Source of the DNA: a bacterium
Lineage (GTDB): Bacteria > Bacteroidota > Ignavibacteria > UBA10030
Assembly (NCBI GenBank): GCA_007280275.1
Contig: QYQB01000043.1
Location: 1 to 47,910, forward strand
Length of the DNA: 47,910 nt
Direction of reading: 5' to 3'
This document shows positions 12,737 through 42,719 of this stretch, in pieces (position 1 is the first letter of the stretch; each line of letters begins with the position of its first letter). Under the pieces are notes generated by a model. The model worked only from the letters and a program-made list of their open reading frames with translations, did not search any database and was not told where the DNA came from. The position numbers and the translations under genes are program-made.

Positions 12737-14917
12737 ATGAGGCGTTTGCTTTCTGTCTGTGTTCTGCTGCTTATGGTATGCCTTGCGTTTACAGACGCAT
12801 ATTCTCAAGCAGTGGACCTGAAGGTCGTGGCGATGTCTCCCGGTCTCCGGAGCAGCGGCTATCCGAGCTTCTCGTCTCCAGCTGCAGGTACGCCCAATTA
12901 TGTCTCCACGGGACTCAGGACCGTTGGTAAAGGCATGAAGGTGTACCTGAAGGCCGATACAGTCGGCTCAGGTGCGACAAAAGTAACAACTTATGCATGG
13001 ACATTTGTGTCCAAGCCGCCAGGATCCACGGCAGCGTTCAGCGATGCAGCAAAGGATTCCGTGACATTTATCCCGGACGTTACAGGTCAGTACATCGTTC
13101 AGGTTGCTGTAAACGGCGCCGCGAAGACTCACGTTGACACAATTACGGCCAGCACCTATCGCGGTATCACCACTTTGGTGCAGTCGTGCCCCTGTCATGC
13201 CGGCTCTGCCACCTTCCTGAATTCCTACAGCAACTGGAAGACCACGAAGCACGCAACGATCTTCGCGCGTGGGATGACTGGCCAGCTTGAGAATTCAGAA
13301 GGCACCCATTACAAAGGTGTGTACACGAAAAGTTGCTTCAAATGTCACACGACCGGATGGGAATCTCTGACGAACAACGGAAACTTTGGCTACCTCGCAA
13401 ACACAGGTGCCACAGCCACACCGCCAACGTCGTTTGACTCCACGTGGTACAAAGGTCTTCCTTTGGAAGGCGGCGACTACCTGATTCCGTTCCAGGATTC
13501 CACGCTCTACAAGAAGCTTTCACCTCAAATGCTGGCGGTTGGCAGCATAGGCTGCGAAAGCTGCCACGGCCCGGCAGATGACCATGCGACGACCGCCGAC
13601 AAGAAGAAGATCAGTGTTACGGCTGATGCGGGCGTCTGCAACCAGTGCCACGAATCTCCGAAGGGGCATTCGCTTGGATATTTCTGGAGAGGCTCGACAC
13701 ACTCCACCATGAAGACCAGTGCCGCTGAAGCGAGTCGCAATTCGTGCTGGCCATGTCATAACGGAACGGCGTTCATTTCGTTCACGAATGCATGGGCAGC
13801 CGGACGAAAGACGACATCTGCTGATTCAGCGAAAGTTGATCCAACTTTTCAATCGATATCGTGCTCAGTCTGCCACGATACACATGGCAGTTCGAACGAA
13901 CACCTTCTCCGCTACACAAAGATCGATACACTTATCAACGGGTACAAAGTACCCGCGGGTGTAGGTGGATTTGGTCAAATGTGCATGAACTGTCACCGCG
14001 CGCGTAACAACTCGGTGACCCAAGTGAAGGGTCAGATGGGAAAATTCGGCGACCGGTTCTATCCGCACTATAGTCCTCAAGCTGATATGTACCTCGGAAC
14101 CAATGCTTGGGAATTTGGACTCAAGCTTGAAGGACTGAATACGCACGGCGGACTGAAGAATGGCTGCGTTACATGTCATATGTCCGAACGGATGGTTGTG
14201 CCGAACTACACGAAGGTTCAATCTGATCACGGCATGTCGATGGCGGAGAATGGCGTTGACAAAGTCGAAGGATGCGTCGAGTGTCACGGTGCTATCAAGT
14301 CGTTCAAGGACATCAAAGCGTCATTCGACTACGATGGCGATGGCCAGGTCAAAAGTGCCGTTGAGGAAGTGGCTGGACTAATGGCAAAGCTGAAGGCCAA
14401 GTTACCTGTAGATGCGACAGGTGAGCCGGTCACGATGGCGGCGGATTCGATGCTCGTTAGGAACTTCGCTACCACGAACAAGGTGAGCTACTCCACGCTG
14501 ATCGCGTCGTTGTTCAACTACAATTATGTTTCTCACGACATGAGCCTGGGTATCCACAACACGAAGTACACAGTGGCGATCCTTCGGGCCTCACTCGGAT
14601 TGGTGACCGGCGTCGAAATGGATCCATTGCCGATTCCCAAAACGTTCGAGCTGAGCCAAAACTATCCGAACCCCTTCAATCCGACGACCGAAATCCGCTT
14701 CGACATTCCGAAGTCATCGAGCGTCAAGGTGGTGGTCTATGATATCATGGGCCGGGTGGTCAGGACGCTGGTCGATCAGAAGATGGAAGCCGGTTCACAC
14801 CGGATTTCATGGAATGGTCGCGATCTGGCTGGCAACACTGTCTCCAGCGGGGTTTACTTCTATCACATCAGTGCTGACGGATTCGCAGCCACGAAGAAGA
14901 TGACCTTGATGAAGTAG
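12737..14917 (+). CDS. Secreted multiheme cytochrome c (8 CxxCH + 1 CxCH) with N-terminal Ig/PKD-like domain and T9SS type-A/FlgD-like C-terminal sorting domain
   Basis: Signal peptide AYS-Q; CPCH, CFKCH, CESCH, CNQCH, CWPCH, CSVCH, CMNCH, CVTCH, CVECH; DMSLGIHNTKY helix; tail FELSQNYPNPFNP...SGVYFY...KKMTLMK. Confidence 0.9.
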   Translation: MRRLLSVCVLLLMVCLAFTDAYSQAVDLKVVAMSPGLRSSGYPSFSSPAAGTPNYVSTGLRTVGKGMKVYLKADTVGSGATKVTTYAWTFVSKPPGSTAAFSDAAKDSVTFIPDVTGQYIVQVAVNGAAKTHVDTITASTYRGITTLVQSCPCHAGSATFLNSYSNWKTTKHATIFARGMTGQLENSEGTHYKGVYTKSCFKCHTTGWESLTNNGNFGYLANTGATATPPTSFDSTWYKGLPLEGGDYLIPFQDSTLYKKLSPQMLAVGSIGCESCHGPADDHATTADKKKISVTADAGVCNQCHESPKGHSLGYFWRGSTHSTMKTSAAEASRNSCWPCHNGTAFISFTNAWAAGRKTTSADSAKVDPTFQSISCSVCHDTHGSSNEHLLRYTKIDTLINGYKVPAGVGGFGQMCMNCHRARNNSVTQVKGQMGKFGDRFYPHYSPQADMYLGTNAWEFGLKLEGLNTHGGLKNGCVTCHMSERMVVPNYTKVQSDHGMSMAENGVDKVEGCVECHGAIKSFKDIKASFDYDGDGQVKSAVEEVAGLMAKLKAKLPVDATGEPVTMAADSMLVRNFATTNKVSYSTLIASLFNYNYVSHDMSLGIHNTKYTVAILRASLGLVTGVEMDPLPIPKTFELSQNYPNPFNPTTEIRFDIPKSSSVKVVVYDIMGRVVRTLVDQKMEAGSHRISWNGRDLAGNTVSSGVYFYHISADGFAATKKMTLMK

Positions 14918-14941
14918 CTCTGTTCCAAGCACCAGTCTTAG

Positions 14942-15493: not shown

Positions 15494-18397
15494 ATGAAGA
15501 GATTTCTACTTGGCTTTATTGTTCTGGCAGCATTGATCTGCATCCTCGCTTTGCCCGTTTTGGCACAGATCCAGACGGCAAAGATCTCCGTGGTTAGTGT
15601 CCCGGATCGTTTCAAGGCTGCAAATAAGAACCAATCAACGACCGGCCTGAAATCAGTTGGCGTTGGAAGCCGTGTTGTGCTGGCCCCCATCGTATTCTCA
15701 GGCAACGGTGGAAAGTACGCAGACACGCTTCTCACGGTCACGAGTGCGACGTGGACTCTGAAGAGCCCGTACGGCGCGACAAAGACTATCCAGGACACGG
15801 CTGCCGGTTTGAATGGCAAGATTGTCTATTTCGTCCCCGACACAGTGGGCGACTGGACCGTGACGATGACGGCAACGACTGCGAAGGGTGCTGCATCGCA
15901 AGTGACAACGACAATCGTAGCAGCCAAGTTCATCGGCGCTGGAATCACGATGCAGGCGAACCAGAACGTTCCGAATGGTTGCGCGTGCCATCTTGTGAAC
16001 ACAACCAATTTTACCGATTGGTCAAAGTCGAACCATGCGACGGCTGTGAAGCGCAAGCTCAACGACGCGGCCGGTCACTTCAGCTTCAGCTGCTTCTCCT
16101 GCCACTCCGCTGGGTATGATGGACTGACCTCCAGCGGCAACAACGGATTTGATGATGTGGCAGCGGCAGAGAAATTCACAACGGTTTCGAAAAATGCTCC
16201 TGGAGTATTTGACTCTCTGACGACCCTTTATCCGAAGTCGATGTCGTTGACCGGGATCCAGTGCGAGAATTGCCATGGTCCAGCGGGTCAGCACACTGCA
16301 GCCTTCCCAGTAGCGGGCAACAACAAGTTGGATGAGACGCTCTCATCAAACGTATGCGCCCCGTGTCACTTCTCCTCTGATCGCCATGGAATCGGATATG
16401 CATGGTCAGCTTCTGCGCACGCCATTTCGACGACAGAAGGAATCCAGACGCAATACACCGATCGTCCGATTTGCGCACGCTGCCATACCGCCCAGGGCTA
16501 CATCAATGAAGTAGTCGGTAGTAAAGCCCAGCCGGTTCCGGCTACTGGCGATCTGGTGTATGCCAATCCAATGCCCATCGGATGCTCTACCTGCCATGAT
16601 CCGCACAATGGCTCAAATGAGATGCAACTGCGTGCAAAGACGATCGGCGATGCTTGCGTCGGTTGCCACATTACGCGCATGAGTAGCCGTGGTTTGCACA
16701 CTGCACATCAAGGTTCGATGTTGATCGGAACAAACACGGCCTCATTCAGTCTGGATGTCGCGAATGCCTACCTGCTCGCTCCGTCAGGCTCGGTCCAGCA
16801 GAACAATGCCGCAGTTGGTACGTGGGGGGGATGGGAACTCCCTGGCTACACATATGAGAACTCCTCGCACAGCGATATCAAGGAGCGATGCGTCGCGTGC
16901 CATATGGCGAGTTCTCCTTCATACCTTGCTGCATCTGCATCGAACTTCACAAAAGCCGACACAATGCTGACCAAACTTGGGCGGCATACGTTCAAGGTCG
17001 CGTATGAGAATATCGTCGGCCAGGACACGACGACGATTCTGAATCCTACCGGCTGCGACGAGTGCCACGGAACGGTGTCCATCGAATTTGTCGAGTCAAC
17101 CCAGGCGAAGACCGATAAACTACTTGCAAGCCTGTATGCTGCGTTGCCAAAACGGGATACGATCATCAGTGCAATCAATCCCACCGGTACGCCGATCCTC
17201 TTCACCGACACAATCACGTGGCAAAACAATTCAAAGCTTCCTCTGACCTCGAAACGCAAGCTTTCGGTCGTTGAGCGCGCGGCTGCCTACAATCTGCAGT
17301 TCGTTCGTAACGATGGTAGCGGTGGCGTGCACAACTACAACTATTCAAAGGGCCTTCTCAACTCCTCGCTCGAGCAGGTGAAGCTCGGCGCCGGAGCGTC
17401 CTCAATCTCCTCGATCAAAGACGTGCCGGTTGATAACGGCAAGAAGGTCCAGGTTGTCTGGTCCGCCTTCCCGGCAGAGACGTATAGCTTCAACCAGGTG
17501 ATCAATTATGGAGTGTGGAGAAAAGATCCGATTCTGCCCAGCCTCAATTCGGTTAAGAAGGCCGGCAGTTTCACGGAAATGATGAGCACAACGAGCCAGG
17601 GCGGCCAGGTTGTTCTGGGCGGCAGCGTTTGGTCATACGTTGGCTCAGTCCCTGCATCTGGAATGGCACAGTATTCATTCCTGGCTTCGACACTCTTCGA
17701 TTCCACGAAAACCTCAGGTCAGCGGTGGACAGTTTTCTATGTTGCCGGCTACACCAAGGACAACCAGGTCATGTTTTCGAGCCAGCCCGACAGCGGATAC
17801 TCGGTGGACAACCTCGCTCCGGCTGTTCCATCAGGCTTGAATGCCTCGTTCTCGAAGAACACCGTTACATTGAAGTGGACGGCGAATGTTGAGAGCGACG
17901 TGTATCAGTACGCGATCTATCGTGGAACAACATCAACCTTCAACCCGGCGGGTACCACGCCTTTGGCGAAGGTTCGTACACCTCTCTATCAGGATCCGGT
18001 TTCTCAGAGCGGTGTGACGTACTACTACAAGGTCTCTGCACTCGATATCGCGGGTAACGAGAGCGGATACACCAGCGTGAGTGTGCTCACAGATGTCCAG
18101 AACGGCAGCGGTCTGCCGACGGAATTCGCGTTGAACCAGAACTTCCCGAATCCGTTCAACCCGACGACAGAAATCGCATTCTCGGTGCCGAAACAAACCC
18201 CTGTCAAGGTCGTGATCTACGGCTTGTCCGGAGAGGTTGTTGCGACAGTCGTGAATCAGACGATGTCTGCCGGCAATTACCGTGTCACGTGGAATGGCAA
18301 AACCGACGACGGTCGTGCTGTGGCAAGCGGTGTCTACTTCTACCATTTGCAGGCGGACGGATTCACTGCAACGAAGAAAATGACATTGCTGAAGTAA
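15494..18397 (+). CDS. Secreted multiheme cytochrome c (8 CxxCH + 1 CxCH) with extra beta/FN3-like domains and T9SS C-terminal sorting domain
   Basis: ATG 15494 after GGAGGT; signal peptide VLA-Q; CACH, CFSCH, CENCH, CAPCH, CARCH, CSTCH, CVGCH, CVACH, CDECH; DGSGGVHNYNY; FN3-like DNLAPAVPSGL...YYYKVSALDIAGNES; tail FALNQNFPNPFNP...KKMTLLK. Confidence 0.9.
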   Translation: MKRFLLGFIVLAALICILALPVLAQIQTAKISVVSVPDRFKAANKNQSTTGLKSVGVGSRVVLAPIVFSGNGGKYADTLLTVTSATWTLKSPYGATKTIQDTAAGLNGKIVYFVPDTVGDWTVTMTATTAKGAASQVTTTIVAAKFIGAGITMQANQNVPNGCACHLVNTTNFTDWSKSNHATAVKRKLNDAAGHFSFSCFSCHSAGYDGLTSSGNNGFDDVAAAEKFTTVSKNAPGVFDSLTTLYPKSMSLTGIQCENCHGPAGQHTAAFPVAGNNKLDETLSSNVCAPCHFSSDRHGIGYAWSASAHAISTTEGIQTQYTDRPICARCHTAQGYINEVVGSKAQPVPATGDLVYANPMPIGCSTCHDPHNGSNEMQLRAKTIGDACVGCHITRMSSRGLHTAHQGSMLIGTNTASFSLDVANAYLLAPSGSVQQNNAAVGTWGGWELPGYTYENSSHSDIKERCVACHMASSPSYLAASASNFTKADTMLTKLGRHTFKVAYENIVGQDTTTILNPTGCDECHGTVSIEFVESTQAKTDKLLASLYAALPKRDTIISAINPTGTPILFTDTITWQNNSKLPLTSKRKLSVVERAAAYNLQFVRNDGSGGVHNYNYSKGLLNSSLEQVKLGAGASSISSIKDVPVDNGKKVQVVWSAFPAETYSFNQVINYGVWRKDPILPSLNSVKKAGSFTEMMSTTSQGGQVVLGGSVWSYVGSVPASGMAQYSFLASTLFDSTKTSGQRWTVFYVAGYTKDNQVMFSSQPDSGYSVDNLAPAVPSGLNASFSKNTVTLKWTANVESDVYQYAIYRGTTSTFNPAGTTPLAKVRTPLYQDPVSQSGVTYYYKVSALDIAGNESGYTSVSVLTDVQNGSGLPTEFALNQNFPNPFNPTTEIAFSVPKQTPVKVVIYGLSGEVVATVVNQTMSAGNYRVTWNGKTDDGRAVASGVYFYHLQADGFTATKKMTLLK

Positions 18398-18407
18398 TTC
18401 GATCACG

Positions 18408-18440
18408 GATGCCCCGCCCGAACCGGGCGGGGCGTCTCTT
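18408..18440 (+). terminator. Strong GC hairpin with weak U-tract between the paralogs (attenuator or mRNA-stabilising stem)
   Basis: gatgccccgcccg-aac-cgggcggggcgtc followed by tctt. Confidence 0.55.
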
Positions 18441-18496
18441 ACTCACAAAGGAATTTTGTGTCGCACCTCAAATCGAATACCCAAGAGGGAGGTTGT

Positions 18497-21388
18497 ATGA
18501 AGAGATTTTTACTCACTGCTACAGTGCTTGTGGTACTGATTTCGGTACTCGCAGGTCTGGCGCTTGCGCAGACAGTGCAGTCTGGAAGGGTTAAAGTGGT
18601 TGCTGTCCCCGACCGTTACAAGGCTGCGAACAAGAATCAATCAACGACTGGGTTGAAGACAGTCGGACAAGGTCAGCGTATTGTCCTTGCGCCGCAAATA
18701 TGGTTGAACCAGGGGACAAAGCAGGCAGACACGCTTGTCCCGGCTCTCTCCGCTACGTGGACCCTCACCAATCCTTACGGAACGGCGAAGACAATTCAGG
18801 ATACGGCGACCGGACTCAATGGTACGTACGTCTATTTTGTCCCCGACACCGTTGGGGACTGGACAGCGTCCTATTCGGCAACCACAAAGTTAGGGTCCGT
18901 GGCAGGCACCGGAAAGATCACCGTCGCAAAGTTTGTTGGCGTGGGAATCTCGATGGTCTCCACTCAGGGCGTGCCGAACGGTTGCGCTTGTCACCTCGTC
19001 GAACCAACGAAATTCTCAGATTGGTCGAAGACCAACCATGCTACCGCAGTGAAGCGCAAACTGAATGACCCGACCGGGCACTTCAGTTTCAGCTGCTTCT
19101 CCTGCCATTCGATAGGTTATGATGGCGTCCCCACCGCCGGCAACAACGGTTTTGACGATGTTGCTGCGGCGGAGAAGTTTGCCACAGTGTCGAGGAATGC
19201 AGTTGGTGTGTTTGACTCGCTGAAGACACTCTATCCAAAGTCGATGGCATTGACCGGAATCCAGTGCGAAAACTGCCACGGCCCCGCAGGACAGCACGTT
19301 GCAGGAATGCCCGTTCCAGGAAACAACAAGCTTGACGAAACATGGTCGCCGGAAGTTTGTGCACCTTGCCATTTCTCAAGCGACCGACATGGTATTGGCT
19401 ATGCCTATACTGCTTCACGTCACTTCACGTCAAGCTCGAACGGGAGCACCCGCGTTAACAACTTCAATCGTCTCTTGTGCGCTCGCTGCCATACCGGCCA
19501 GGGATATGTATATGAGAAGATTCAAGGCAAGATGCAGACTGTTCCCGCCACCGGAGAAGTTGAATACGTTGGTGGCACGTCTATGACCTGCGTAACCTGC
19601 CACGATCCGCACAATGGATCCAACGATAAGCAGCTTCGTGCGAAATCGGTTGGCGAGTCTTGCCTCGGCTGCCACGTTATCCGTTTGGGCACGGGTGGTT
19701 CCTTGCATACATCCCATCAGGGTTCGATGCTACTTGGTGCGAACCTGACACCATTCGGCACGGACGCGCTGAATGCCTACACATCGACGCCTTCAGGGAC
19801 TCCTCAGCAGGTCGTCGCAGCAGTCCAGACGTTGGGTGGATGGCAGTTGCCCGGCTATGTCTATGAGAATTCTTCTCACAGCGATATCAAAGAGATGTGC
19901 GTGAAGTGTCACATGGCAAGTTCACCTTCGTTCCTGGCAGCTTCGGCTTCCAACTTTACGAAGGCAGACACGATGATGACAAAGCTTGGCGGTCACACCT
20001 TCAAAGTTGCATATGACAATATCGTCGGCAAAGACACCACTACGATTCTCAATCCGACGGGGTGCGAAGAGTGCCACGGCGAGGCTTCGATCGAGTTTGT
20101 GGATCTCACCCAGGCAAAGACGAAAACTCTGCTGGCGAACTTGTTCAAAGCGCTGCCAAAGCGAGACTCCGCTGGCGTTACGATAAGCTCAATGAGTGAC
20201 ACGGTTGCCTACCAGAACTGGGCAAAGGCTCCCGCCGCACTGAAGCGCAAACTCACAACGATTGACAAGGCATCTATCTTCAACTACAACTTTGTCAACA
20301 ACGATGGAAGCTTCGGTGTACACAACTTCAACTATGCGAAAGGTCTTTTGACTTCTTCGCTGGAGCAGGTGACGCTCGGTGCCGGTGCATCAAGCATCGC
20401 ATCGATCAAAGATGTACCGCTCGACAACGGCAAAAAGGTCCAGGTTGTGTGGAACGCCTTCCCGTCAGAATATTACAGCTTCAACCAGATTGTCAATTAC
20501 GGTATCTTCAGAAAAGATCCGACGCTCCCGAGTCTCAATTCGATCAAGAAGGTCGGAAGCTTCACGGAACTGATGCAGACGACCAAGGTCGGCGGATCGG
20601 CCCTCATGGCTGGCACAGTGTGGACTTATGTCGGCTCAGTGCCGGCCTCAGGATTGACGCAGTATTCCTACATTGCTCCGACGATCTTCGATTCAACGAA
20701 GACCTCGGGTCAGCGGTGGACGACGTTCTATATCGCTGGCTACACGGGGGCGAGCACGGTTGCGTTCTCAACGCAGGCTGACAGCGGTTACTCAGTTGAC
20801 AACATTGCTCCTGCTTCTCCGAGCGGCACATCAGCCTCGTTCCTGAATAACGTGGTGACGTTGAAGTGGACCGCCAGCCCAGAAGATGATGTGTCCCAGT
20901 ATGCAATCTACAGAGGAACGGCAGCTAATTTCAATCCTGCCGGGACCACACGGTTGGCAACAGTGCGCACGTCACAGTACCAGGATGCAGTGTCGCAGAG
21001 CGGCGTGACATACTACTACAAGATTTCGGCGATTGATTTTGCTGGCAACGAGAGCGGCTGCACCAGCGTTAGCGTGCTCACAGATGTCCAGAACGGCAGC
21101 GGTCTGCCGACGGAATTCGCGTTGAACCAGAACTTCCCGAATCCGTTCAACCCGTCCACAGAGATCGCCTTCGCCGTGCCGAAACAGACTGCGGTCAAGA
21201 TCGTGATCTATGGTCTCTCCGGTGAGGTTGTTGCCACGCTCGTGAATCAAACGATGGCGGCTGGCAACTACCGTGTTACCTGGAACGGCAAGACCGACGA
21301 TGGTCGGGCAGTCGCCAGCGGTGTCTACTTCTACCATCTGCAGTCAGAAGGATTCACTGCAACGAAGAAGATGACATTGTTGAAGTAA
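18497..21388 (+). CDS. Paralog of 15494-18397: secreted multiheme cytochrome c (8 CxxCH + 1 CxCH) with T9SS C-terminal domain
   Basis: ATG 18497 after GGAGGT; CACH, CFSCH, CENCH, CAPCH, CARCH, CVTCH, CLGCH, CVKCH, CEECH; collinear with the upstream gene over its whole length. Confidence 0.9.
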   Translation: MKRFLLTATVLVVLISVLAGLALAQTVQSGRVKVVAVPDRYKAANKNQSTTGLKTVGQGQRIVLAPQIWLNQGTKQADTLVPALSATWTLTNPYGTAKTIQDTATGLNGTYVYFVPDTVGDWTASYSATTKLGSVAGTGKITVAKFVGVGISMVSTQGVPNGCACHLVEPTKFSDWSKTNHATAVKRKLNDPTGHFSFSCFSCHSIGYDGVPTAGNNGFDDVAAAEKFATVSRNAVGVFDSLKTLYPKSMALTGIQCENCHGPAGQHVAGMPVPGNNKLDETWSPEVCAPCHFSSDRHGIGYAYTASRHFTSSSNGSTRVNNFNRLLCARCHTGQGYVYEKIQGKMQTVPATGEVEYVGGTSMTCVTCHDPHNGSNDKQLRAKSVGESCLGCHVIRLGTGGSLHTSHQGSMLLGANLTPFGTDALNAYTSTPSGTPQQVVAAVQTLGGWQLPGYVYENSSHSDIKEMCVKCHMASSPSFLAASASNFTKADTMMTKLGGHTFKVAYDNIVGKDTTTILNPTGCEECHGEASIEFVDLTQAKTKTLLANLFKALPKRDSAGVTISSMSDTVAYQNWAKAPAALKRKLTTIDKASIFNYNFVNNDGSFGVHNFNYAKGLLTSSLEQVTLGAGASSIASIKDVPLDNGKKVQVVWNAFPSEYYSFNQIVNYGIFRKDPTLPSLNSIKKVGSFTELMQTTKVGGSALMAGTVWTYVGSVPASGLTQYSYIAPTIFDSTKTSGQRWTTFYIAGYTGASTVAFSTQADSGYSVDNIAPASPSGTSASFLNNVVTLKWTASPEDDVSQYAIYRGTAANFNPAGTTRLATVRTSQYQDAVSQSGVTYYYKISAIDFAGNESGCTSVSVLTDVQNGSGLPTEFALNQNFPNPFNPSTEIAFAVPKQTAVKIVIYGLSGEVVATLVNQTMAAGNYRVTWNGKTDDGRAVASGVYFYHLQSEGFTATKKMTLLK

Positions 21389-22861: not shown

Positions 22862-22877
22862 TGGCACGAGAGTTGCG
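22862..22877 (+). promoter_or_regulatory. Sigma54 promoter of the membrane cytochrome operon
   Basis: TGGCAC-GAGAG-TTGCG. Confidence 0.8.
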
Positions 22878-30433: not shown

Positions 30434-30434
30434 C

Positions 30435-35544: not shown

Positions 35545-36078
35545 ATGGTAACCCGTTTTCTCACCCTGCTGTTGATTGTGATCGTGGCCGTTGGGTTTAC
35601 ATCACAGGCTCAGAACAAGTACATCGGCGTCAAGATGTGCTCCATGTGTCACAAAGCGGACAAATCAGGAAATCAGTTTGGCGTGTGGCAGAAGACCAAA
35701 CACGCTGAAGCATACAAGACCCTGACCGGTGCGAAGGCTGCTGAGATTGCAAAAGGAAAAGGCATCAAGAACGCAGCGGAAGCTCAGGAATGTCTCGCAT
35801 GCCATGGTGCTGTTGATGCGAAGCTCGCCGAGAAGACCTTCGATGTGAAAGACGGCGTGCAGTGCGAAGTATGCCACGGTCCGGGATCTGCCTATAAGAA
35901 CATGGCTGTCATGAAAGACAAGGCCAAGGCGATCGCCGCCGGTTTGCACGAGTTCAAAGACATGGCAGCCGTCGAGACTTTCTGCAAGACCTGCCACAAC
36001 GAAAAGAGCCCGACCCACAAAGCCTTCAAGTTCGAGGAGATGTGGGGAAAGATCAAGCACCCGGTGAAGAAGGGCTAG
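35545..36078 (+). CDS. Soluble periplasmic tetraheme cytochrome c554-family protein
   Basis: RBS AGGAGG; signal peptide; YIGVKMCSMCH, W.KTKH, CLACH, GVQCEVCHGPGS, CKTCH. Confidence 0.88.
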   Translation: MVTRFLTLLLIVIVAVGFTSQAQNKYIGVKMCSMCHKADKSGNQFGVWQKTKHAEAYKTLTGAKAAEIAKGKGIKNAAEAQECLACHGAVDAKLAEKTFDVKDGVQCEVCHGPGSAYKNMAVMKDKAKAIAAGLHEFKDMAAVETFCKTCHNEKSPTHKAFKFEEMWGKIKHPVKKG

Positions 36079-36124: not shown

Positions 36125-36160
36125 AAGCGGCGCTGTGGCGCAAAGCGCAGCGCCGTTTAT
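36125..36160 (+). terminator. Hairpin/possible terminator after the c554-like gene
   Basis: aagcggcgctg / cagcgccgttt stem followed by a short T-tract. Confidence 0.55.
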
Positions 36161-36191
36161 CCCCTCTGTTCTCTCGTAAGGGGAAGTTCCA

Positions 36192-36593
36192 ATGGACAGG
36201 AATGCGGTTCAGAAATCCTTCGAAGTGTGGCTGTTCGTTGCAGTCGCCGCATCAATGAACGGCATGTTCCGGAGTCTGTTTCTCGTGCCGAGGATAGGAG
36301 AGTATACTTCACACGTGCTGAGCGTGCTGATGTTGATGATTGTCGTTCTCCTCTCCTCATCTGTATTGGTGAACAGGCTCCTGAAGGAGTACGCCAACAG
36401 CGATTTGTTCCTGATCGGATCCCTGTGGGCGGTACTGACGTTGAGTGTCGACTTTGTCTTTGAGCTCTATGTTCTTGAAATACCCTGGAGAGCGATTCTA
36501 TCCGACTACAATGTGTCTTCCGGACGGATCTGGATCCTGGTGCTGACCACGGAGATCATCGGACCTTGGTTTATGGCTTCGAACAATCGTTGA
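36192..36593 (+). CDS. Small 4-TM membrane protein of unknown function
   Basis: 133 aa with four hydrophobic segments; fills the gap on the operon strand. Confidence 0.7.
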   Translation: MDRNAVQKSFEVWLFVAVAASMNGMFRSLFLVPRIGEYTSHVLSVLMLMIVVLLSSSVLVNRLLKEYANSDLFLIGSLWAVLTLSVDFVFELYVLEIPWRAILSDYNVSSGRIWILVLTTEIIGPWFMASNNR

Positions 36594-36708
36594 CCAGAGG
36601 GCAGACGCTCGTTTTCAGCACGAATGTATTGACACCACTGTTTTCAGCGACCTTGTTATTTGAACTTGTGACGTTGTTTTGATCAACCATACTCTTACTA
36701 GAGCGATT

Positions 36709-38022
36709 ATGAAGAAACTCCTGGTTGTCGCCTGTCTCATCTTCCTTTCGGTCTCCGGTACTCTTGCACAACGGTTGCAGGCCCGGTTTGTCACCTCCGC
36801 ATATGCCTGGGAGAGACAGGACACGATTGGAACCTCCTCGCAGCATCTTTTCGGCTATCAGACGATACAGCTTTCCATCGCCGGTGAAAAGCTCTCGTTC
36901 AATACCTACCTTCAGGGCTTCAATGATTTTGCCGGCCCCCTCAAGAATGAGGGAATCCTGAGAGTCTATAACCTCTATTTCAAAGCCTCGAATATCGCTC
37001 AGCTTGCAGATGTGAGCCTGGGGCGTCAGGCGGTCTTCGCGGGCGTGGGCACCGGGACGATCGATGGAGGGCTTGTGTCGCTCAAGTTCCTTGATTCCCG
37101 GCTGAAAGTCGTCGGATACTACGGCACGCTCCCGTCAGAGCGCTACAAGATGGCGTTGATCAGCAATGCCGGCGACAACTACATGACAGGCGGCCAAATG
37201 GTTGCCTCGCCCGCCGACTTTGCCCAGATCTCGGTGAGCTATATGCAGAAGCATCTCAGGCCCGAGACATACATCGGCATCCGCCGGGATTCGCTCTTCA
37301 ATCCGTACCCGATCGAGATCAAGCCCTCGGCAGCGGCAGAAGAATACATCAGCGGCGATGTCAATCTCGAATACAACGACGTCATTTCGGGATATGGCCG
37401 GTATGATTATGATCTCCTTTCGGAGAAAAACTCCCGGATGCAGCTCTTCACGAGGGTGAAGCCGTTCGGCTCCCTGAACGTCAAAGCGCTCGAACCATTG
37501 AGCCTGACAGGAGAGTACGTCCAGCGCGATCCGCGGTTGCTCTATAATTCGATTTTCTCAGTCTTCACATTCAACTCCCTGAAGGAATATGAGGTGGGAG
37601 TTGAGTATGCGATCGGCACAGCCTGGCAGGTGTTCGCGAAGTATGGAGCGGTCTCCTACAACGACGCAACGCAGAACCAAATTACAGTCGGCGTGAATGG
37701 CGAACATGTCTCATTAAGCGTCACGAGAGATAACGGGGATGGCGGAGAACTGAGCGCTGCGTCCTTGAACCTTGGATATCCGCTGCTCGAGAACAAGCTG
37801 ACACCGACACTTCTCCTTGGCTATGCGCATTACAAACTGAGCGAGTACTCCTCAAAGCTGGATGATGCACTCAGCGTTGCTGTGGGGGCTGTCTATCGCC
37901 CCTCCCGGCTCTTCAGTGTCGATGCACAGGCGCAGTGGATCCAGAACAAGATCTACAGCAGCGACATGCGTTTCTTTGTGAGGGTAAACTATCTTCTCAG
38001 CCACCAACTTGAAATCTTCTAG
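36709..38022 (+). CDS. Putative outer-membrane beta-barrel (porin of a porin-cytochrome conduit)
   Basis: Signal peptide TLA-Q; alternating amphipathic aromatic-rich strands (VSLGRQ, YGRYDYD, VGAVYRP, FFVRVNY); terminal Phe; no heme motifs; directly upstream of two multiheme genes. Confidence 0.75.
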   Translation: MKKLLVVACLIFLSVSGTLAQRLQARFVTSAYAWERQDTIGTSSQHLFGYQTIQLSIAGEKLSFNTYLQGFNDFAGPLKNEGILRVYNLYFKASNIAQLADVSLGRQAVFAGVGTGTIDGGLVSLKFLDSRLKVVGYYGTLPSERYKMALISNAGDNYMTGGQMVASPADFAQISVSYMQKHLRPETYIGIRRDSLFNPYPIEIKPSAAAEEYISGDVNLEYNDVISGYGRYDYDLLSEKNSRMQLFTRVKPFGSLNVKALEPLSLTGEYVQRDPRLLYNSIFSVFTFNSLKEYEVGVEYAIGTAWQVFAKYGAVSYNDATQNQITVGVNGEHVSLSVTRDNGDGGELSAASLNLGYPLLENKLTPTLLLGYAHYKLSEYSSKLDDALSVAVGAVYRPSRLFSVDAQAQWIQNKIYSSDMRFFVRVNYLLSHQLEIF

Positions 38023-38029
38023 AAACCTT

Positions 38030-39262
38030 ATGCCAAACCCCACATCACACAGTATCGTTCGGCGGGTCCCCAACGGGTTCTTTTCTGTCGCTGTCTGCGT
38101 GCTGGCCCTGACACTGGTGGCGTTTTCCAGTGTCAACGCCCAGTCCAAGGACCGACCGACCACAATCAAATTCTCTCACCGCTTTCACGTCAGGGATGCG
38201 GGTGCTGCCTGTGCGGATTGCCATACGGCCGCGCCAACAAGCAAACTCGCTTCGGACACGCTGCTCGCAACGCACGAAAACTGCAAGTCGTGTCACGAAG
38301 AGCAACTGAGCTCGAAGTGCGCTTTCTGCCATACGAGCGAGGACCCGACGACGTACACGACCACCCCGTTGCCCAAGCGCAACCTTGTGTTCTCGCACCA
38401 GCAACACGTCGAGGCGCAAAAGGTCGAGTGTGAAAAATGCCACACTGGTGTGGACAAGGCGGAAATCGGTGTCTCGGTTGGGATCCCACCGATGCCAACG
38501 TGCAACACCTGCCATAACGACATCAAGGCATCGAATGCGTGTGAAGGATGCCACGTGGACATGGCTGCACTCCGGCCCAGAGAGCACGATCGCACAGAAT
38601 TCGTCCGTGAGCACAAAATGGCTGCCCGCATTTCGACGGCGACATGCGCATCATGCCATACGCAGGAATCGTGTGCGGACTGTCATAACGGTTCGGATCT
38701 TCTGAAGGTCAGTGTCCCCGGGAAGGATCTCATGTCACTCCGCTCGCCGCGGCTCACTGCCAACGATCGCGGTCAAGGGATGCGAACGGCGAAGGTACAC
38801 GATCTGAACTTCAAGTTTACCCACGGTCTCGCGGTTGAAGGCAAAACTTCCGACTGCCAGACGTGTCATAACAAGCAAACCTTCTGTGCAACGTGTCACG
38901 CAGCAGGAGGGAATGTCAACCAGGGAAAATTCCAGCCAGAGTCTCACCGAAAGTCGGGGTTTGTGACGATTGGAGTCGGATCCGGCGGTGGTGTGCATGC
39001 TAAACTGGCCAGAAGGGATATCGAAAGCTGTGCATCCTGCCACGACACGCAGGGCGCTGATCCGGCTTGCATCACGTGTCATATGGATTCGGATGGAATC
39101 AAAGGGACGAACGCCAGGACGCATGAACGGGGCTTCATGGCCGGAAACCATGGCACCTGGCATACGGATCCCGGTGCGACGTGCTATGTCTGTCATACGG
39201 ATGCCAATGCGCGTGCCGGGGGAATTAAAGGACAGAAGTTCTGTGGCTATTGTCATAAATGA
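38030..39262 (+). CDS. Periplasmic 14-heme cytochrome c (c3/c7-like modules), porin-associated
   Basis: Signal peptide VNA-Q; FSHRFH and FSHQQH c7-type starts; 14 CxxCH. Confidence 0.88.
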   Translation: MPNPTSHSIVRRVPNGFFSVAVCVLALTLVAFSSVNAQSKDRPTTIKFSHRFHVRDAGAACADCHTAAPTSKLASDTLLATHENCKSCHEEQLSSKCAFCHTSEDPTTYTTTPLPKRNLVFSHQQHVEAQKVECEKCHTGVDKAEIGVSVGIPPMPTCNTCHNDIKASNACEGCHVDMAALRPREHDRTEFVREHKMAARISTATCASCHTQESCADCHNGSDLLKVSVPGKDLMSLRSPRLTANDRGQGMRTAKVHDLNFKFTHGLAVEGKTSDCQTCHNKQTFCATCHAAGGNVNQGKFQPESHRKSGFVTIGVGSGGGVHAKLARRDIESCASCHDTQGADPACITCHMDSDGIKGTNARTHERGFMAGNHGTWHTDPGATCYVCHTDANARAGGIKGQKFCGYCHK

Positions 39263-39272
39263 GCGGAAACCT

Positions 39273-40358
39273 ATGAGAACATATCATATCCCTACGATCG
39301 TACTACTGACGGCGCTGGTCGTCATTGCGTCACTGCTGAATTCCTGCAGTGATCTCAAGAGTGTGCAGGACCTGCCGACGGCATCTTCCGGCGCGCTCCA
39401 GGTCCATGATGCCGGCTGGCTTGATACGGCGGCGTCCAATTTCCACGGAACGATCCTGAAACAGGCGCAGTATAATCTTAGTGAATGTGCGACCTGCCAT
39501 TCGAAGCAGTTCACCGGAGGGACAAGCGGCGTGGCATGCTCCAAGTGCCACCAGTACTATCCGCATCCGGCCGGATTCAGCGCCTCGACCAGCCACCCGC
39601 AATACCTTTACAATCAGAACTATCCTCTGGGCCAGTGCAAAGCATGTCATGGCGCCACATATGCCGGAGGCGGCAACGCAAACCTCTCCTGCATGAAATC
39701 GGGATGCCATGTCGATGCGAACAATGTTTCAAAATCACCTGAGGCTTGCAACGCCTGTCATGGCAACTTCAAGGCCGCTGCAAATGACTTGCCCTCCGCA
39801 GCTCCGCCGAAGGACATTCTGGGGAACACTGCGACGACCGCACGCGGTGTCGGCGCTCACCAGATACACTTGGTCAGCGGAGCCGTCGGCAAGACGGTAA
39901 AATGTCAAGAATGTCATACGATCCCAACGCAACTCTCCTCACCTGGACACCTTGGAACGCTGCCGGCAGAAGTTGTGTTCAATGATACGCTTGCGCGGTT
40001 GACGACTGGCGGCGGAACCTCTGTGCCCAAACCCTCCTACGATCCATCAACGCTCAAGTGCAGCAATACCTTTTGTCACGGCAACTGGAAGGTAAGGAAA
40101 GCTACGTCCACCTCCCAGTTTGTCTTCGCGGACTCAGTTATGGTCGGTGCCAATGATTCTCCAGCCTGGACGGGTGGATCGGCAGCGGCCACGTGCGGTA
40201 CCTGCCACGGAATACCGCCGAAGGGTCACCTCGCACTCGCTGTTTCCTCCTGCGGGACATGTCACGTCGGTGTTGTTGACAACAACGGGCACATCGTCGA
40301 CAAGACGAAACACGGCAACGGGAAAATCAACGTGTTCGGTCAGGAATACGCATTCTGA
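39273..40358 (+). CDS. Lipoprotein multiheme cytochrome (7 CxxCH + 2 Cx4CH; Geobacter CxxxxCH...CxxCH-type domain)
   Basis: Lipobox LLNS-C; CATCH, CSKCH, CKACH, CMKSGCH, CNACH, CQECH, CSNTFCHGN..PAW..CGTCHG.PP, CGTCH...HGNG. Confidence 0.85.
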   Translation: MRTYHIPTIVLLTALVVIASLLNSCSDLKSVQDLPTASSGALQVHDAGWLDTAASNFHGTILKQAQYNLSECATCHSKQFTGGTSGVACSKCHQYYPHPAGFSASTSHPQYLYNQNYPLGQCKACHGATYAGGGNANLSCMKSGCHVDANNVSKSPEACNACHGNFKAAANDLPSAAPPKDILGNTATTARGVGAHQIHLVSGAVGKTVKCQECHTIPTQLSSPGHLGTLPAEVVFNDTLARLTTGGGTSVPKPSYDPSTLKCSNTFCHGNWKVRKATSTSQFVFADSVMVGANDSPAWTGGSAAATCGTCHGIPPKGHLALAVSSCGTCHVGVVDNNGHIVDKTKHGNGKINVFGQEYAF

Positions 40359-40424
40359 CGCGTTGAGAGGTTCTCGGTAAAGTATTTATGTAACCATTAA
40401 CGGGAAGGGAGTGGCTGAGGGAAT

Positions 40425-42719
40425 ATGGTGGGGACTCTTATTGTCTGGATAGCATGTGCCGCAGCCTCGTTGTCGGCTTATGCGTACTACCGAAGTACTA
40501 TAACGGAGAAGAAATTCCTGGCCCTCGCGCGCAACAGCTACGGGGTCATGGCAGTGGGCGTTCTGGCCGCATCGGTCGCCCTGATGGTGTACATCCTGCG
40601 TCACCATTTCGAGTACGACTATGTTTGGGCGTACAGCTCCAGGTCACTTCCGCTTGAACTGCTGATCACGACCTTCTGGGCCGGCCAGGAAGGAAGCTTC
40701 CTCCTCTGGGCGCTTTGTGGATCGATCATCGGGATCATTCTGATGGTCTATACGCGGCGGAAGGAGATCGAAGCGGAGACGATGACGATCTTTGCAATCG
40801 TCCAGGCATTCCTCCTGTTGTTGTTGGTCGTGAAGTCGCCCTTCCGGTTTGTCTGGGACGCACACGCGGGTGAGGCGCCAGTAGGCATAGTTCCACCGGA
40901 CGGACGCGGACTGAATCCCTTGCTGCAAAACTTCTGGATGATCATTCATCCGCCTATCCTGTTTGCCGGTTTCGCGATGATGGCGGTTCCCTTTGTGTTC
41001 GCCATGGCTGCTCTCTGGCGCAAAACCTATCTTGATTGGATTCCCAGCGCCTTGCCCTGGGTCATCGCGGGGACTATCGCCCTCGGCATGGGGATCATGT
41101 TGGGCGGATACTGGGCCTACGGTGTTCTCGGTTGGGGAGGCTGGTGGGGATGGGACCCTGTTGAAAACTCCTCTCTTATTCCATGGATCATCGGTGTGAT
41201 CCTTATCCATACGATGCTCGTGCAACGCAAAACAGGCGGGCTTGCGAAGACGAACTTCTTCCTTGGAATCTGCACCTACGTGCTGGTCGTCTACAGCACA
41301 TTCCTGACGCGCAGCGGCATCCTTGGCTCTTCTTCAGTTCACTCGTTCGTCGATCCGGGAGCACTGGCGTATACGCTTCTCGTCATTTGGATCGGTGGGT
41401 CGCTCGTCATCGGATTCGGCATGCTGATCAGACGCTGGGGCGATCTCAAAGCGTTTTCCAACCGTTCTCCGCTCTTCACAAGAGAGTCCCTTCTCGCGAT
41501 CAGTTCGGTCGTCATGGGGGCGAGTACGCTGGTGATCTTGTTTGGGACAAGCTGGCCGATAGTTTCTCACGCATCCCTCGAGCCGGCATTTTATGACAAG
41601 ACCAACCTCCCGATTGCCATCGCCCTGGGGTTCCTGCTTGCACTCAGCTTGCTTGTCCAATGGAAAGAAGAATCCTCACGCCAGATTCTCCGGAATGCGG
41701 CGGTCTCGTTTCTGGCCGCACTTGCAGTGACGGTAGTTCTCGTGATCTCCGGCCTTGACGATATTCTGATCGGGTTGTTCGCTTTCACATCTCTCTTCGC
41801 CTTTTTTGTCAACGTTATCCGTCTCTACCGTCTCGCGAAAGAGAACGTGCGCTACACGGGGGGAGCCATGGCCCACATCGGGCTTGCGGTTCTCTTCCTC
41901 GGAATCATCGGATCAGGACGATATGGAGAAAAGAAGACCGCATCGCTTCCGATCAACGAACCCAAGGAGGTCCTTGGGTACCAACTGACGTACACAGGGT
42001 CGAGCCCAACGCCGGATGGGAAGTGGAAGTTTTCCGTCGCCGTGGCCAGGGATGGCTCTCGATTCATCCTGGACCCGGTCATGTTTGAGAGTGAGTACAA
42101 CAACAGTTTGATGCGAAATCCGGATTACGCATCGTTCCTCACGCGGGATTTCTACATCGAACCGGTATCGCTCGAGGAAGTCGAACCTGCGGCAGCAACA
42201 GGGGGTGGAAATGTCCTGCAGCTGAAAAATGGGGAGACCAAGACCATCGGCGACGCGACGGTCAAGTTCGTTCGGTTCGACATGGCGCACAAGGGAATGG
42301 AATCGATGGCTGCAAGCGCCGGGTTTACCGTGGGTGCAGTGCTCGAGGTGAAGCACGGTACCTCGACGGAACAACTCACACCTGTTACGGTATACAAAGA
42401 CTCCCTGCCCCCTCAGATGCGGATTGCCCGGACCAAAGATGGGGCGATCGGTTTCGAACTCCTCAGAATGAACGTTGATTCTCAGACAAAGGCCTCGGCC
42501 ATTGAACTGATTGTGACGGGTTTGGGAGCTCACGCTCCTGTAGCATCTCAGAAATCGCAGCTCCTGGTCATCGAAGCGAGCGTCAAGCCGTTTATGAGCC
42601 TGGTGTGGGCCGGGGCCGCGCTGATGATGCTGGGGTTGGGCATCTCTCTTTCTACGAAATTCAACGGCAATGCGCTCAGGCAATCGGATGCTGAAAGGAA
42701 TAAACGCGGGATTTCATGA
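40425..42719 (+). CDS. ccmF: Cytochrome c heme lyase CcmF/NrfE (System I)
   Basis: WAGQEGS, GRGLNPLLQNFWMIIHPP, WGGWWGWDPVEN (WWD domain), FLTRSG..SSVHSF, AHIG. Confidence 0.93.
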   Translation: MVGTLIVWIACAAASLSAYAYYRSTITEKKFLALARNSYGVMAVGVLAASVALMVYILRHHFEYDYVWAYSSRSLPLELLITTFWAGQEGSFLLWALCGSIIGIILMVYTRRKEIEAETMTIFAIVQAFLLLLLVVKSPFRFVWDAHAGEAPVGIVPPDGRGLNPLLQNFWMIIHPPILFAGFAMMAVPFVFAMAALWRKTYLDWIPSALPWVIAGTIALGMGIMLGGYWAYGVLGWGGWWGWDPVENSSLIPWIIGVILIHTMLVQRKTGGLAKTNFFLGICTYVLVVYSTFLTRSGILGSSSVHSFVDPGALAYTLLVIWIGGSLVIGFGMLIRRWGDLKAFSNRSPLFTRESLLAISSVVMGASTLVILFGTSWPIVSHASLEPAFYDKTNLPIAIALGFLLALSLLVQWKEESSRQILRNAAVSFLAALAVTVVLVISGLDDILIGLFAFTSLFAFFVNVIRLYRLAKENVRYTGGAMAHIGLAVLFLGIIGSGRYGEKKTASLPINEPKEVLGYQLTYTGSSPTPDGKWKFSVAVARDGSRFILDPVMFESEYNNSLMRNPDYASFLTRDFYIEPVSLEEVEPAAATGGGNVLQLKNGETKTIGDATVKFVRFDMAHKGMESMAASAGFTVGAVLEVKHGTSTEQLTPVTVYKDSLPPQMRIARTKDGAIGFELLRMNVDSQTKASAIELIVTGLGAHAPVASQKSQLLVIEASVKPFMSLVWAGAALMMLGLGISLSTKFNGNALRQSDAERNKRGIS

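Follow-up and report, generated by a model that had tools for sequence, protein, structure and literature searches.

Predicted extracellular electron transfer locus of an uncultured Ignavibacteria lineage, with OcwA-like cytochromes carrying type IX sorting domains

Ignavibacteria are common in sediments, peat and aquifers and on anodes, and their role in iron and humic cycling has been inferred almost wholly from scattered gene matches. The DNA analysed here (the window) is one whole contig of 47,910 nucleotides (nt), QYQB01000043.1, from the metagenome-assembled genome (MAG) GCA_007280275.1 of an uncultured member of this class; between positions 12737 and 42719 it carries a locus of 11 c-type cytochromes that resembles published systems for extracellular electron transfer (EET). 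The corresponding system described in the class is the porin–cytochrome (Pcc) cluster IALB_1837-1840 of Ignavibacterium album. Shi et al. (2014) give it a 400-residue, 14-heme periplasmic cytochrome, an outer-membrane cytochrome (IALB_1837) with atypical motifs and a porin only distantly related to those of Geobacter. As far as that published description goes, the two clusters, from organisms of the same class, are alike in having a periplasmic cytochrome, a porin, a 14-heme protein of about 400 residues (IALB_1838 in I. album) and an outer-membrane cytochrome, and in occurring as a single copy per genome. They differ in that I. album has an alternative complex III (ACIII) and no Rieske/cytochrome b complex, according to Liu (2012), whereas in the window the porin trio belongs to an operon that also holds ImcH-like, CbcL-like and NrfCD-type modules and a Rieske/cytochrome b module, and that comes after cytochromes tagged for the type IX secretion system (T9SS).

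EET in the Ignavibacteria has been inferred before, and the porin trio matches the published I. album cluster. Homologues of pcc genes have been reported from Ignavibacteria MAGs (He 2019; Fortney 2018), and the Ignavibacteria found enriched on anodes carry many multi-heme cytochromes and OmbB-like porin–cytochrome complexes (Arbour 2020). Two CbcL-type and three ImcH homologues were found in the Ignavibacteriae (Zhong and Shi 2018) and an ImcH homologue in the Melioribacter lineage (Levar 2014). The EET reading of the initial annotation is therefore not new for the lineage. Melioribacter roseus is reported to reduce Fe(III). For its NrfC/NrfD, which come without a molybdopterin subunit, Kadnikov et al. 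(2013) proposed a role in passing electrons to multi-heme cytochromes of the periplasm and to an Fe(III) reductase of the outer membrane; the NrfC/NrfD pair of the window differs from this account in lying inside the EET operon with an octaheme partner of its own. A preprint on EET in peat (10.64898/2026.05.27.727921) concerns Acidobacteriota and Verrucomicrobiota and has no bearing on the Ignavibacteria locus.

Geobacter sulfurreducens offers a similar set of parts: ImcH, the CbcL architecture, and the Pcc complex OmaB/OmbB/OmcB, including a lipoprotein with a Cx4CH...CxxCH domain. In that organism the genes are dispersed and imcH is monocistronic, whereas the window holds them in one operon; the heme numbers also differ, with 13 against 9 in the CbcL-like protein and 14 against 8 in the periplasmic Pcc cytochrome. 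The likeness to Shewanella MtrCAB is one of principle, in that surface cytochromes receive their electrons from a chain of hemes threaded through a barrel of the outer membrane, but there is no sequence-family relation to MtrB, MtrA or MtrC, and the barrel of the window is predicted to be smaller (24 strands, against 26 in MtrB). The surface cytochromes of Shewanella are MtrC-fold decahemes exported by type II secretion; those of the window have the OcwA fold and are tagged for the T9SS. OcwA of Thermincola potens (6i5b) and the S-layer undecaheme cytochrome of Carboxydothermus ferrireducens (6qvm) share with them an NrfA-superfamily fold, nine collinear heme sites, a helix bundle and 22% identity. 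In OcwA, hemes 2 and 5 are penta-coordinate with distal His-His motifs, and heme 9 has His/Met ligation. These two are cell-surface terminal reductases in the cell wall or S-layer of Gram-positives, and apart from the present family the OcwA fold is known from Gram-positive iron reducers; the window belongs to a Gram-negative host. Its proteins are extended by an Ig-like domain at the N-terminus and by a T9SS sorting domain, and in the window's clade their first heme site reads CxCH.

From its architecture, homology and conservation we consider the locus to be a dedicated EET regulon of uncultured Ignavibacteria with outward electron flow, a reading to which we give a probability of roughly 0.65. 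Up to five alternative modules of the inner membrane would oxidise menaquinol (CbcL-like; 19-heme/b561; ImcH-like; octaheme/NrfC/NrfD; Rieske/cytochrome b/11-heme), and the electrons would then pass to a soluble c554-like tetraheme cytochrome. They would cross the outer membrane through a 14-heme cytochrome threaded in a 24-strand porin, reach a 9-heme surface lipoprotein and move on to OcwA-like nonahemes that the T9SS would export folded and heme-loaded. At or close to the cell surface, these would pass the electrons to an insoluble or polymeric acceptor, for example Fe/Mn oxides, humics or a partner cell. The non-standard heme sites would probably be matured by a second CcmF/NrfE-type lyase, encoded in the operon, and the PAS kinase and NtrC-type activator nearby would turn on the 17-gene operon through a sigma-54 promoter. 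Beyond the published clusters, the locus adds the gathering of five quinol modules into one sigma-54 operon, a CcmF paralogue dedicated to it, terminal cytochromes that are OcwA-like and T9SS-tagged, and a conserved CxCH site. We hold more tentatively, at somewhat less than even odds, the full proposal that the surface step of EET in the Ignavibacteria is carried out by OcwA-type nonahemes exported folded and heme-loaded via the T9SS and docked at the porin conduit, that the whole chain with its five quinol modules forms one sigma-54 regulon, and that one sub-clade has an unprecedented CxCH heme site matured by the operon's CcmF/NrfE paralogue.

Heme motifs, predicted outer-membrane conduit and secreted cytochromes

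A six-frame, stop-to-stop scan of frames of at least 60 amino acids finds CxxCH in exactly 11 frames of the window and in none besides. In gene order they hold 8, 8, 8, 13, 19, 6, 8, 11, 4, 14 and 7 motifs, 106 altogether; when the residues of these 11 proteins were shuffled 200 times, the number averaged 0.69 and never rose above 4. Six variant sites bring the number to 112: the ImcH-like protein contributes one Cx3CH, the 9-heme lipoprotein two Cx4CH and the three secreted cytochromes one CxCH each. The initial annotation had described 11 cytochromes c with about 112 motifs in one co-oriented locus, and this description is borne out; all the genes it named are present, and every main open reading frame (ORF) analysed between 12737 and 42719 lies on the + strand. 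Starts of the longest ORFs were revised for nine genes (15494, 18497, 22946, 27151, 30435, 34030, 36709, 38030 and 39273). The assembly as a whole (3.70 Mb in 338 contigs, 84% complete, 1.5% contaminated) contains 15 frames with at least three CxxCH and 130 motifs between them; 11 of these frames, with 106 motifs, fall within 30 kb, or 0.8% of the assembly.

The outer-membrane part of the locus has the make-up of a Pcc gene cluster, with a beta-barrel model, a cytochrome with a Sec signal and a lipoprotein cytochrome in the same gene order as in I. album. The porin (36709..38022, +; 437 residues) gave only sub-threshold porin matches by family search. Its AlphaFold (AF2) model, with a predicted local distance difference test score (pLDDT) of 86, is all-beta with 24 predicted strands and no plug domain, and matches structurally (VIA-align) the barrels of TonB-dependent transporters (Z 19) and ushers (Z 18.5), which have 22-24 strands, as well as MtrB (Z 15.8). 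Next to it lies the 14-heme periplasmic cytochrome (38030..39262, +), with 14 CxxCH in 410 residues and a Sec signal.

A complex of the mature porin and the mature 14-heme protein, each supplied with a 30-row alignment, was predicted with a median ipSAE of 0.63 (runs 0.61, 0.66 and 0.63) against 0.01 for the best of three controls; the mark used for this score is reached by 58 of 80 solved complexes and by 2 of 110 mismatched pairs. Between runs, no less than 65% of the contacts agree, and the partner's pLDDT is at least 67. Since the porin residues in contact are every second one along the barrel strands, that is, the lumen-facing ones, the 14-heme cytochrome is predicted to sit inside the barrel, although the solved MtrAB is a like case and the pass may partly reflect that likeness.

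The third member of the trio is an outer-membrane lipoprotein cytochrome (39273..40358, +) with 7 CxxCH and 2 Cx4CH and a lipobox cysteine, Cys25, followed by S-D-L-K. It matches TIGR01904, the Geobacter-type Cx4CH...CxxCH domain, with 44.3 bits (cut-off 27), and the lipoprotein signal is kept in 28 of 36 relative rows under a strict pattern, four row pairs among these being the same records. On the periplasmic side of the conduit, the soluble tetraheme cytochrome (35545..36078, +) has a signal peptide, is c554-like (PF13435, E 2.6e-14) and occupies the same position as IALB_1840 in I. album. Between the tetraheme and porin genes lies a small membrane protein of 133 residues (36192..36593, +) with three transmembrane-like segments, which had no family match, lenient Pfam scans included, and is present in 10 of 32 loci. 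A porin profile search of a large protein collection gave 416 matches, and the best 120 of these, those listed, all come from close relatives and are unnamed or named as Ignavibacteria, Bacteroidota/Bacteroidetes or unclassified bacterium. Two porin homologues in other genomes of the class carry one in-frame stop each (G381:C1:2328532-2329785, TAA; G138:C6:396638-397888, TAG) and may be pseudogenes or sequencing errors.

The three genes that precede the operon encode, on sequence evidence, OcwA-like nonahemes of the NrfA superfamily with type IX sorting domains. T9cytA (12737..14917, +) has 8 CxxCH and 1 CxCH, a signal peptide, an N-terminal Ig/PKD-like domain, a C-terminal helix bundle and a T9SS type A sorting domain. 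T9cytB (15494..18397, +), also with 8 CxxCH and a CxCH, has an extra spacer of about 250 residues and matches FlgD_ig and Por_Secre_tail; T9cytC (18497..21388, +), with the same motif count, is its tandem paralogue, 70% identical over 970 columns. Lenient Pfam scans of the spacer of T9cytB and T9cytC gave nothing usable. T9cytB aligns with the T9cytA family with a probability of 100% (hhalign; E 9e-79, 619 columns).

The type IX assignment has several supports. Each of the three proteins has a signal peptide, and with the C-terminal sorting domain this gives the combination known from T9SS type A cargo, an N-terminal Sec signal and a C-terminal sorting domain, from which surface export is predicted. 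TIGR04183 (cut-off 23) scores 45.3 bits in T9cytA and 36.7 bits in T9cytB, while the C-terminus of T9cytC reaches 24-26 bits in Pfam (below the cut-off of 27) and matches the C-terminal part of the PorU model. The C-terminal domain of the T9cytA model resembles the sorting domains of PorU, PorZ and mirolase with Z 9-10.6 (PorU, Z 10.6; VIA-align). The genome encodes T9SS machinery: PorU (823 bits) and SprA (317 bits) each pass the cut-off of their model. A sorting-domain-like C-terminus is present in at least 43 frames of the genome. Among the best 120 T9cytA homologues listed, 117 have a T9SS-type C-terminal Pfam match. The initial annotation had placed the host in the Fibrobacteres–Chlorobi–Bacteroidetes (FCB) lineage, in keeping both with PorU and SprA and with the database records of its relatives, which read Ignavibacteria, and the source names of homologues; a small-subunit ribosomal RNA gene was not found in the assembly.

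The cytochrome part of these proteins became visible only at family level. A single-sequence PDB search with T9cytA gave only FlgD-like matches to the C-terminal domain and weak cytochrome matches, and a family profile was needed; likewise, with the whole T9cytA model as query, Foldseek ranked mainly Ig-like matches to the C-terminal domain at the top, and the cytochromes emerged on realignment with VIA-align. A profile of 33 T9cyt family members has OcwA (6i5b) as its first PDB match (E 8e-18), followed by 6qvm (E 1.5e-10) and then NrfA and the octaheme nitrite reductases. Nine heme sites align in order with those of OcwA, and a C-terminal helix bundle (helices 541-624 of the model) is common to both. 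By structure, T9cytA matches 6qvm with Z 14.6 (249 residues, 4.2 Å), OcwA with Z 13.3 (241 residues, 3.8 Å) and NrfA with Z 12.3. Across the 33 aligned sequences His444 does not vary and His311 hardly does, and a motif check found neither CxxCK nor any other NrfA catalytic signature.

The CxCH site (CPCH or CACH) lies at residues 151-154 of T9cytA and at residues 163-166 of T9cytB and T9cytC. Most family members have CxxCH at this position, and so nine CxxCH; CxCH is found in the five closest homologues listed, and others have Cx3CH or Cx5CH. In the open PubMed Central and bioRxiv library we found no literature linking the T9SS with multi-heme cytochromes and none placing OcwA-type proteins in the Ignavibacteria, and type IX tags on surface cytochromes look new. 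Elsewhere in the assembly, at G000:C302:4807-6639 (-), there is another T9SS-tagged protein with three CxxCH, a triheme.

The window ORFs scanned for families (the main + strand ORFs, two - strand ORFs and a small Fis-like ORF) gave no match to a molybdopterin subunit, to NrfA or to a heme-copper oxidase. The initial annotation had noted that no catalytic terminal reductase is present, which is right for molybdoenzymes, NrfA and oxidases; it does not extend to the NrfA/OcwA superfamily, to which the three secreted cytochromes belong.

Quinol modules, heme lyase and regulation

By sequence, five modules of the locus are predicted to interact with quinone. The first is a CbcL-like fusion (22946..25135, +), a periplasmic domain with 13 CxxCH joined to a C-terminal di-heme cytochrome b membrane domain. 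PF01292 matches residues 503-684 of the long ORF (E 2e-13), there are four to five transmembrane-like segments, and the NCBIfam matches are of FdnI/HydC type, so that the architecture of CbcL, MtoC and MtrH, a multi-heme domain with a HydC/FdnI-like di-heme b, is found here with 13 hemes in place of 9. The second is a split CbcL-like pair (25140..28050, +), made up of a cytochrome with 19 CxxCH and a C-terminal transmembrane helix (25140-27173) and a separate cytochrome b561 (27151-28050), which matches PF01292 and a formate-dehydrogenase-gamma-like NCBIfam model.

The third module is an ImcH-like inner-membrane cytochrome (28139..29629, +) with three transmembrane-like segments (15-33, 47-65 and 97-115). 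PF03264 (NapC/NirT) matches residues 96-185 with E 1.6e-13, TIGR03153 (NrfH) gives E 2e-14 but stays below its cut-off, and a Cx3CH at residue 129 is followed by 6 CxxCH, making seven motifs. The protein thus has each of the three features published for ImcH (Levar 2014): three transmembrane helices, NapC/NirT homology and seven motifs of which the first is CXXXCH.

The fourth module (29693..32407, +) comprises a membrane-anchored octaheme, an NrfC/DsrO-type 4Fe-4S protein with a Tat signal (30435-31175) and an NrfD-type quinone-interacting subunit (31172-32407). Fer4_11 and NrfD are matched in Pfam and DsrO, TtrB and NrfC in NCBIfam below the cut-offs, and there is no molybdopterin partner. 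This module occurs in only two of eight relatives (G024 and G039) and is absent from G002, G005 and G006 of the same genus; it is a presence/absence polymorphism at a fixed site between the ImcH-like and Rieske genes. The fifth module, all on the + strand, consists of a Rieske protein (32499-32957), a cytochrome b with b6 and subunit-IV parts (32954-34033) and an 11-heme cytochrome with a C-terminal transmembrane helix (34030-35502). Pfam matches are to Rieske, Cytochrome_B and Cytochrom_B_C, and the genes overlap by 4 nt; adjacent Rieske and cytochrome b genes with a c-type subunit, here the 11-heme protein, are what a Rieske/cytochrome b complex comprises.

By analogy with Geobacter, the five modules probably serve acceptors of different redox potential. 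The Geobacter-like list of quinol-to-surface parts drawn up in the initial annotation gains support from the three ImcH features, the CbcL architecture and the plug-less porin with its predicted 14-heme insert.

The last gene of the operon encodes a putative CcmF/NrfE-family heme lyase paralogue (40425..42719, +), with PF01578 and PF16327 over their cut-offs and TIGR03145 and TIGR00353 at about 250 bits, below cut-offs of 569-927. CcmE was found in 5 of 5 relatives and not in the window's own 84%-complete assembly. In addition to the CcmF gene of the cluster, G006, G005 and G039 have another next to CcmE; in G013 and G024 the cluster copy alone was found. NrfE matures a CXXCK site, and by analogy it is a reasonable inference that the cluster lyase is dedicated to the Cx3CH, Cx4CH and CxCH sites.

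The operon (22946-42719) has 17 genes and a largest intergenic gap of at most 115 nt. The window has three exact copies of the sigma-54 -24/-12 pattern TGGCAC-N5-TTGC, where 0.13 would be expected. One copy (22862..22876, +) starts 84 nt before the CbcL-like start codon, and the pattern recurs 79-120 nt upstream of the CbcL homologue in G006, G002, G005 and G013, with a near-match in G024. RpoN is encoded on contig C313, and upstream of the cluster lie a PAS histidine kinase (7873-9303, +; Pfam PAS/HisKA/HATPase_c) and an NtrC-type sigma-54 activator (9300-10679, +; Pfam Response_reg/Sigma54_activat/HTH_8). The elements of a sigma-54 operon, pattern, RpoN and NtrC-type activator, are present together, and the promoter itself is a prediction. 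The kinase–activator pair is kept upstream of the cluster in G006, G005 and G039, with weaker relatives near the cluster in G033, G025, G029, G287 and G413, and from their sequences the two proteins are likely to regulate the cluster.

The second pattern (10868-10882, +) follows the activator gene and precedes an ORF of 86 residues for a Fis-type helix-turn-helix protein (10955-11215, +; HTH_8 E 7e-10); this site is also kept in G006 and G005. The third (32668-32682, -) lies inside the Rieske gene, recurs at the same position in G002 and is probably a coding-sequence coincidence. The three T9cyt genes of the window have no exact sigma-54 pattern before them. In the G005 locus (L027/L028) an extra exact pattern stands at relative position 5867, upstream of the first T9cytB-like gene, which hints that T9SS cytochromes can belong to the same regulon. 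Across 23001-43000, neither sigma-70 promoter-like sequences (8, against 10.7 in shuffles) nor terminator-like sequences (17, against 17.2) are in excess, a result that fits the presence of internal signals as well as their absence. No Rfam family reaches its gathering score in the window.

Conservation and environmental occurrence

A synteny search was proposed in the initial annotation. Eight relatives were examined, three from the same genus, two from the same family and three from the same order, and all eight keep the core order of (CbcL-like, 19-heme, b561), ImcH-like, Rieske, cytochrome b, 11-heme, tetraheme, porin, 14-heme, 9-heme and CcmF, with lineage-specific losses. The order also holds in most of 32 named MAG loci, taken as 10 kb on either side of the porin where the contig allowed. 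In these 32 loci the porin and the 14-heme gene were each found 31 times, the tetraheme 30, the 9-heme 28, the 11-heme 27, cytochrome b and CcmF 26 each, the ImcH-like gene 23 and the Rieske gene 22; their records read Ignavibacteria, Ignavibacteriales, Ignavibacteriota or Bacteroidota bacterium. Because the core is syntenic across genus, family and order, and because the GC content of the window (0.51-0.57) is like that of the genome (0.53), the locus is not a recently acquired island: the word "island" of the initial annotation does not apply in the sense of an acquired element.

Among 401 sampled genomes of the phylum, the porin profile is matched in 66, all within the class Ignavibacteria; in other classes there was none, with 0 of 87, 0 of 61, 0 of 28 and 0 of 21, for example, in four large families. 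The T9cytA-type profile is matched in 52 of the 401 at E <= 1e-40, seven of them by the sorting domain only. The heme domain of this type is accompanied by the porin in 43 of 44 other genomes, and one genome lies in another class; two candidates were scored per genome, and relatives are not independent samples.

The T9SS cytochromes adjoin the porin cluster in three families. Members of the window's own genus have from one to three such genes, placed after the regulators and before the operon. In G029, from a different family, two T9SS cytochromes with 9 and 7 CxxCH stand directly upstream of the porin on the same strand, and in G287, from another family of the class, a T9cytA-like gene with 9 CxxCH and a second T9SS cytochrome with 6 CxxCH lie beside the cluster.

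The locus is also represented in environmental DNA. With two runs excluded as the possible source, a fraction of 0.36-0.64 of the words sampled from 30000-39999 is found in runs X3-X17 (coded studies P3-P15), which are lake-water and sediment metagenomes. RNA libraries were compared over 18400-38399, a stretch without a silent control and outside which the T9cytA, T9cytB, 14-heme and 9-heme genes lie. Contigs of runs X18 and X19 from one study and of run X20 from another cover 28, 28 and 16 of 30 bins of this stretch at 90-99% identity, and the longest pieces, of 1468 and 1272 nt, run across the 11-heme, tetraheme and porin genes. The T9cytC part (18400-21067) has almost no RNA-library cover, but it is patchy in DNA run X4 too. 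The RNA-library contigs give only a hint that close relatives express the cluster, as DNA may be present in the libraries and contigs cannot show transcripts.

Direction of electron flow, alternative substrates and neighbouring genes

Several points weigh against outward EET as the function of the locus. The T9cytA model has a pLDDT of 68, a middling confidence. To our knowledge, though no literature search was made on this point, there is no evidence of heme binding at a CxCH site with one-residue spacing. I. album, according to Shi et al. (2014), was unable to use Fe(III) or Mn(IV) oxides for growth. The quinol modules could instead feed enzymes encoded elsewhere in the genome, where heme-copper oxidases, an ACIII-like complex and two PF13447 octahemes are found. 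OcwA itself reduces nitrite and hydroxylamine, and the T9SS cytochromes may accordingly act as enzymes on soluble substrates; and CbcL/MtoC-type and porin–cytochrome systems also work inwards, and the direction of flow is unreadable from sequence.

The most probable alternative, although we regard it as unlikely, is inward flow. With Fe(II), a mineral behaving like a cathode or a syntrophic partner as the donor, the surface cytochromes and the conduit might draw electrons in and pass them to the quinone pool or to oxidases encoded elsewhere, the pool being reached through the CbcL/MtoC-like modules or through the Rieske/cytochrome b complex working in reverse. CbcL, MtoC and MtrH homologues occur in metal reducers and oxidisers alike, with no distinguishing sequence feature (Zhong and Shi 2018), and the genome does encode heme-copper oxidases. 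Cyc2 has been reported together with EET genes in Ignavibacteriaceae MAGs of a humic lake, and an "mto-like" system in an Ignavibacteriales MAG. Against inward flow stand the ImcH-like module, whose namesake is known only from outward transfer to high-potential acceptors, and the closest solved relatives of the T9SS cytochromes, which are terminal reductases of iron reducers; moreover, the sole cultured relative whose phenotype is known reduces Fe(III).

Slightly less probable still is the respiration or detoxification of soluble compounds, with the quinol modules feeding the OcwA-like cytochromes or the PF13447 octahemes, nitrite, hydroxylamine, sulfur or selenium species as substrates and the porin in a side role. 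The activities of OcwA and the failure of I. album to use Fe/Mn oxides would fit this, as would the NrfC/NrfD and NrfH-like modules, which typically partner soluble-substrate reductases. Some of the T9cytA database homologues listed are named nitrite reductase c552, and weak PF02335 matches are common among them. OcwA, however, reduces nitrite and hydroxylamine slowly, with a nitrite turnover far below that of true NrfA, and the catalytic signature of NrfA is lacking in the secreted cytochromes. An assembly-wide search with PF02335 gave no match over the NrfA cut-off; one sub-threshold match of 20.5 bits lies inside the 11-heme gene. A 14-heme wire across the outer membrane, as predicted here, and export by the T9SS would be needless for soluble, membrane-permeant substrates, and the association of the T9cytA type with the porin in 43 of 44 genomes also argues against this reading.

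That the clustering is a matter of chance or of faulty assembly and the genes are functionally unlinked, an idea for which a fragmented, 84%-complete MAG of 338 contigs might speak, is next to impossible in view of the gene order shared by eight of eight relatives and most of 32 loci from independent studies, the excess of heme motifs over shuffled proteins and the recovery of the same words from DNA runs X3-X17.

As to enzymes outside the locus, heme-copper oxidases occur elsewhere in the assembly, as does an ACIII-like pentaheme adjoining a molybdopterin-like protein. The COX1 and molybdopterin matches were rejected as terminal enzymes of the cluster, being situated on other contigs. The two PF13447 octahemes are at G000:C202:18705-20216 (+) and G000:C306:1285-2922 (-). 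This family is related to the octahemes of the hydroxylamine oxidoreductase and octaheme tetrathionate reductase (HAO/Otr) type, and its two members are possible soluble-substrate reductase candidates that could draw on the quinol modules of the cluster.

If the locus does serve outward EET, it provides a complete, conserved and testable wiring diagram in one operon, with quinol oxidases, periplasmic shuttle, outer-membrane conduit and regulator. The T9SS-tagged OcwA-like cytochromes would show how FCB bacteria place cytochromes on their surface and what the terminal reductase is; the T9SS would then be a cytochrome export route for respiration, beside the type II route of Shewanella and Geobacter. 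This would join type IX secretion with electromicrobiology, two fields that are unconnected in the searchable open literature. For engineering, the locus offers compact parts, such as a 437-residue barrel with a 14-heme insert. Should the T9SS cytochromes instead be surface enzymes for nitrogen or sulfur compounds, they would represent a new location for catalysis by the NrfA superfamily.

The surroundings of the locus contain further genes. Just upstream of the regulators, a giant surface protein of 1989 residues (241-6210, +) with about ten fibronectin type III repeats and Ig-like domains ends in a T9SS sorting domain; it has only weak partial matches in relatives. Between the activator and T9cytA lies a MarR-family regulator (11822..12271, +; Pfam MarR E 1.5e-12), found in the same place in G006 and G005. 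Between T9cytC and the operon are an ORF of 143 residues (21695-22126, +), which has no family match, and a DksA/TraR-type zinc-finger protein (22188-22547, +), which has no Pfam match and weak DksA/yteA NCBIfam matches below the cut-offs; both ORFs are kept in G006, G002 and G005 at 75-91% identity. A convergent gene for a receiver and HisKA protein (43103..43936, -; Pfam Response_reg and HisKA) closes the cluster and is kept in G006, G002, G005 and G024. Farther downstream, at 44334-46805, the window encodes alanine dehydrogenase and acetyl-CoA hydrolase/transferase; in G013 these two genes lie directly upstream of the CbcL-like gene, and the flanks have therefore been rearranged around a fixed core.

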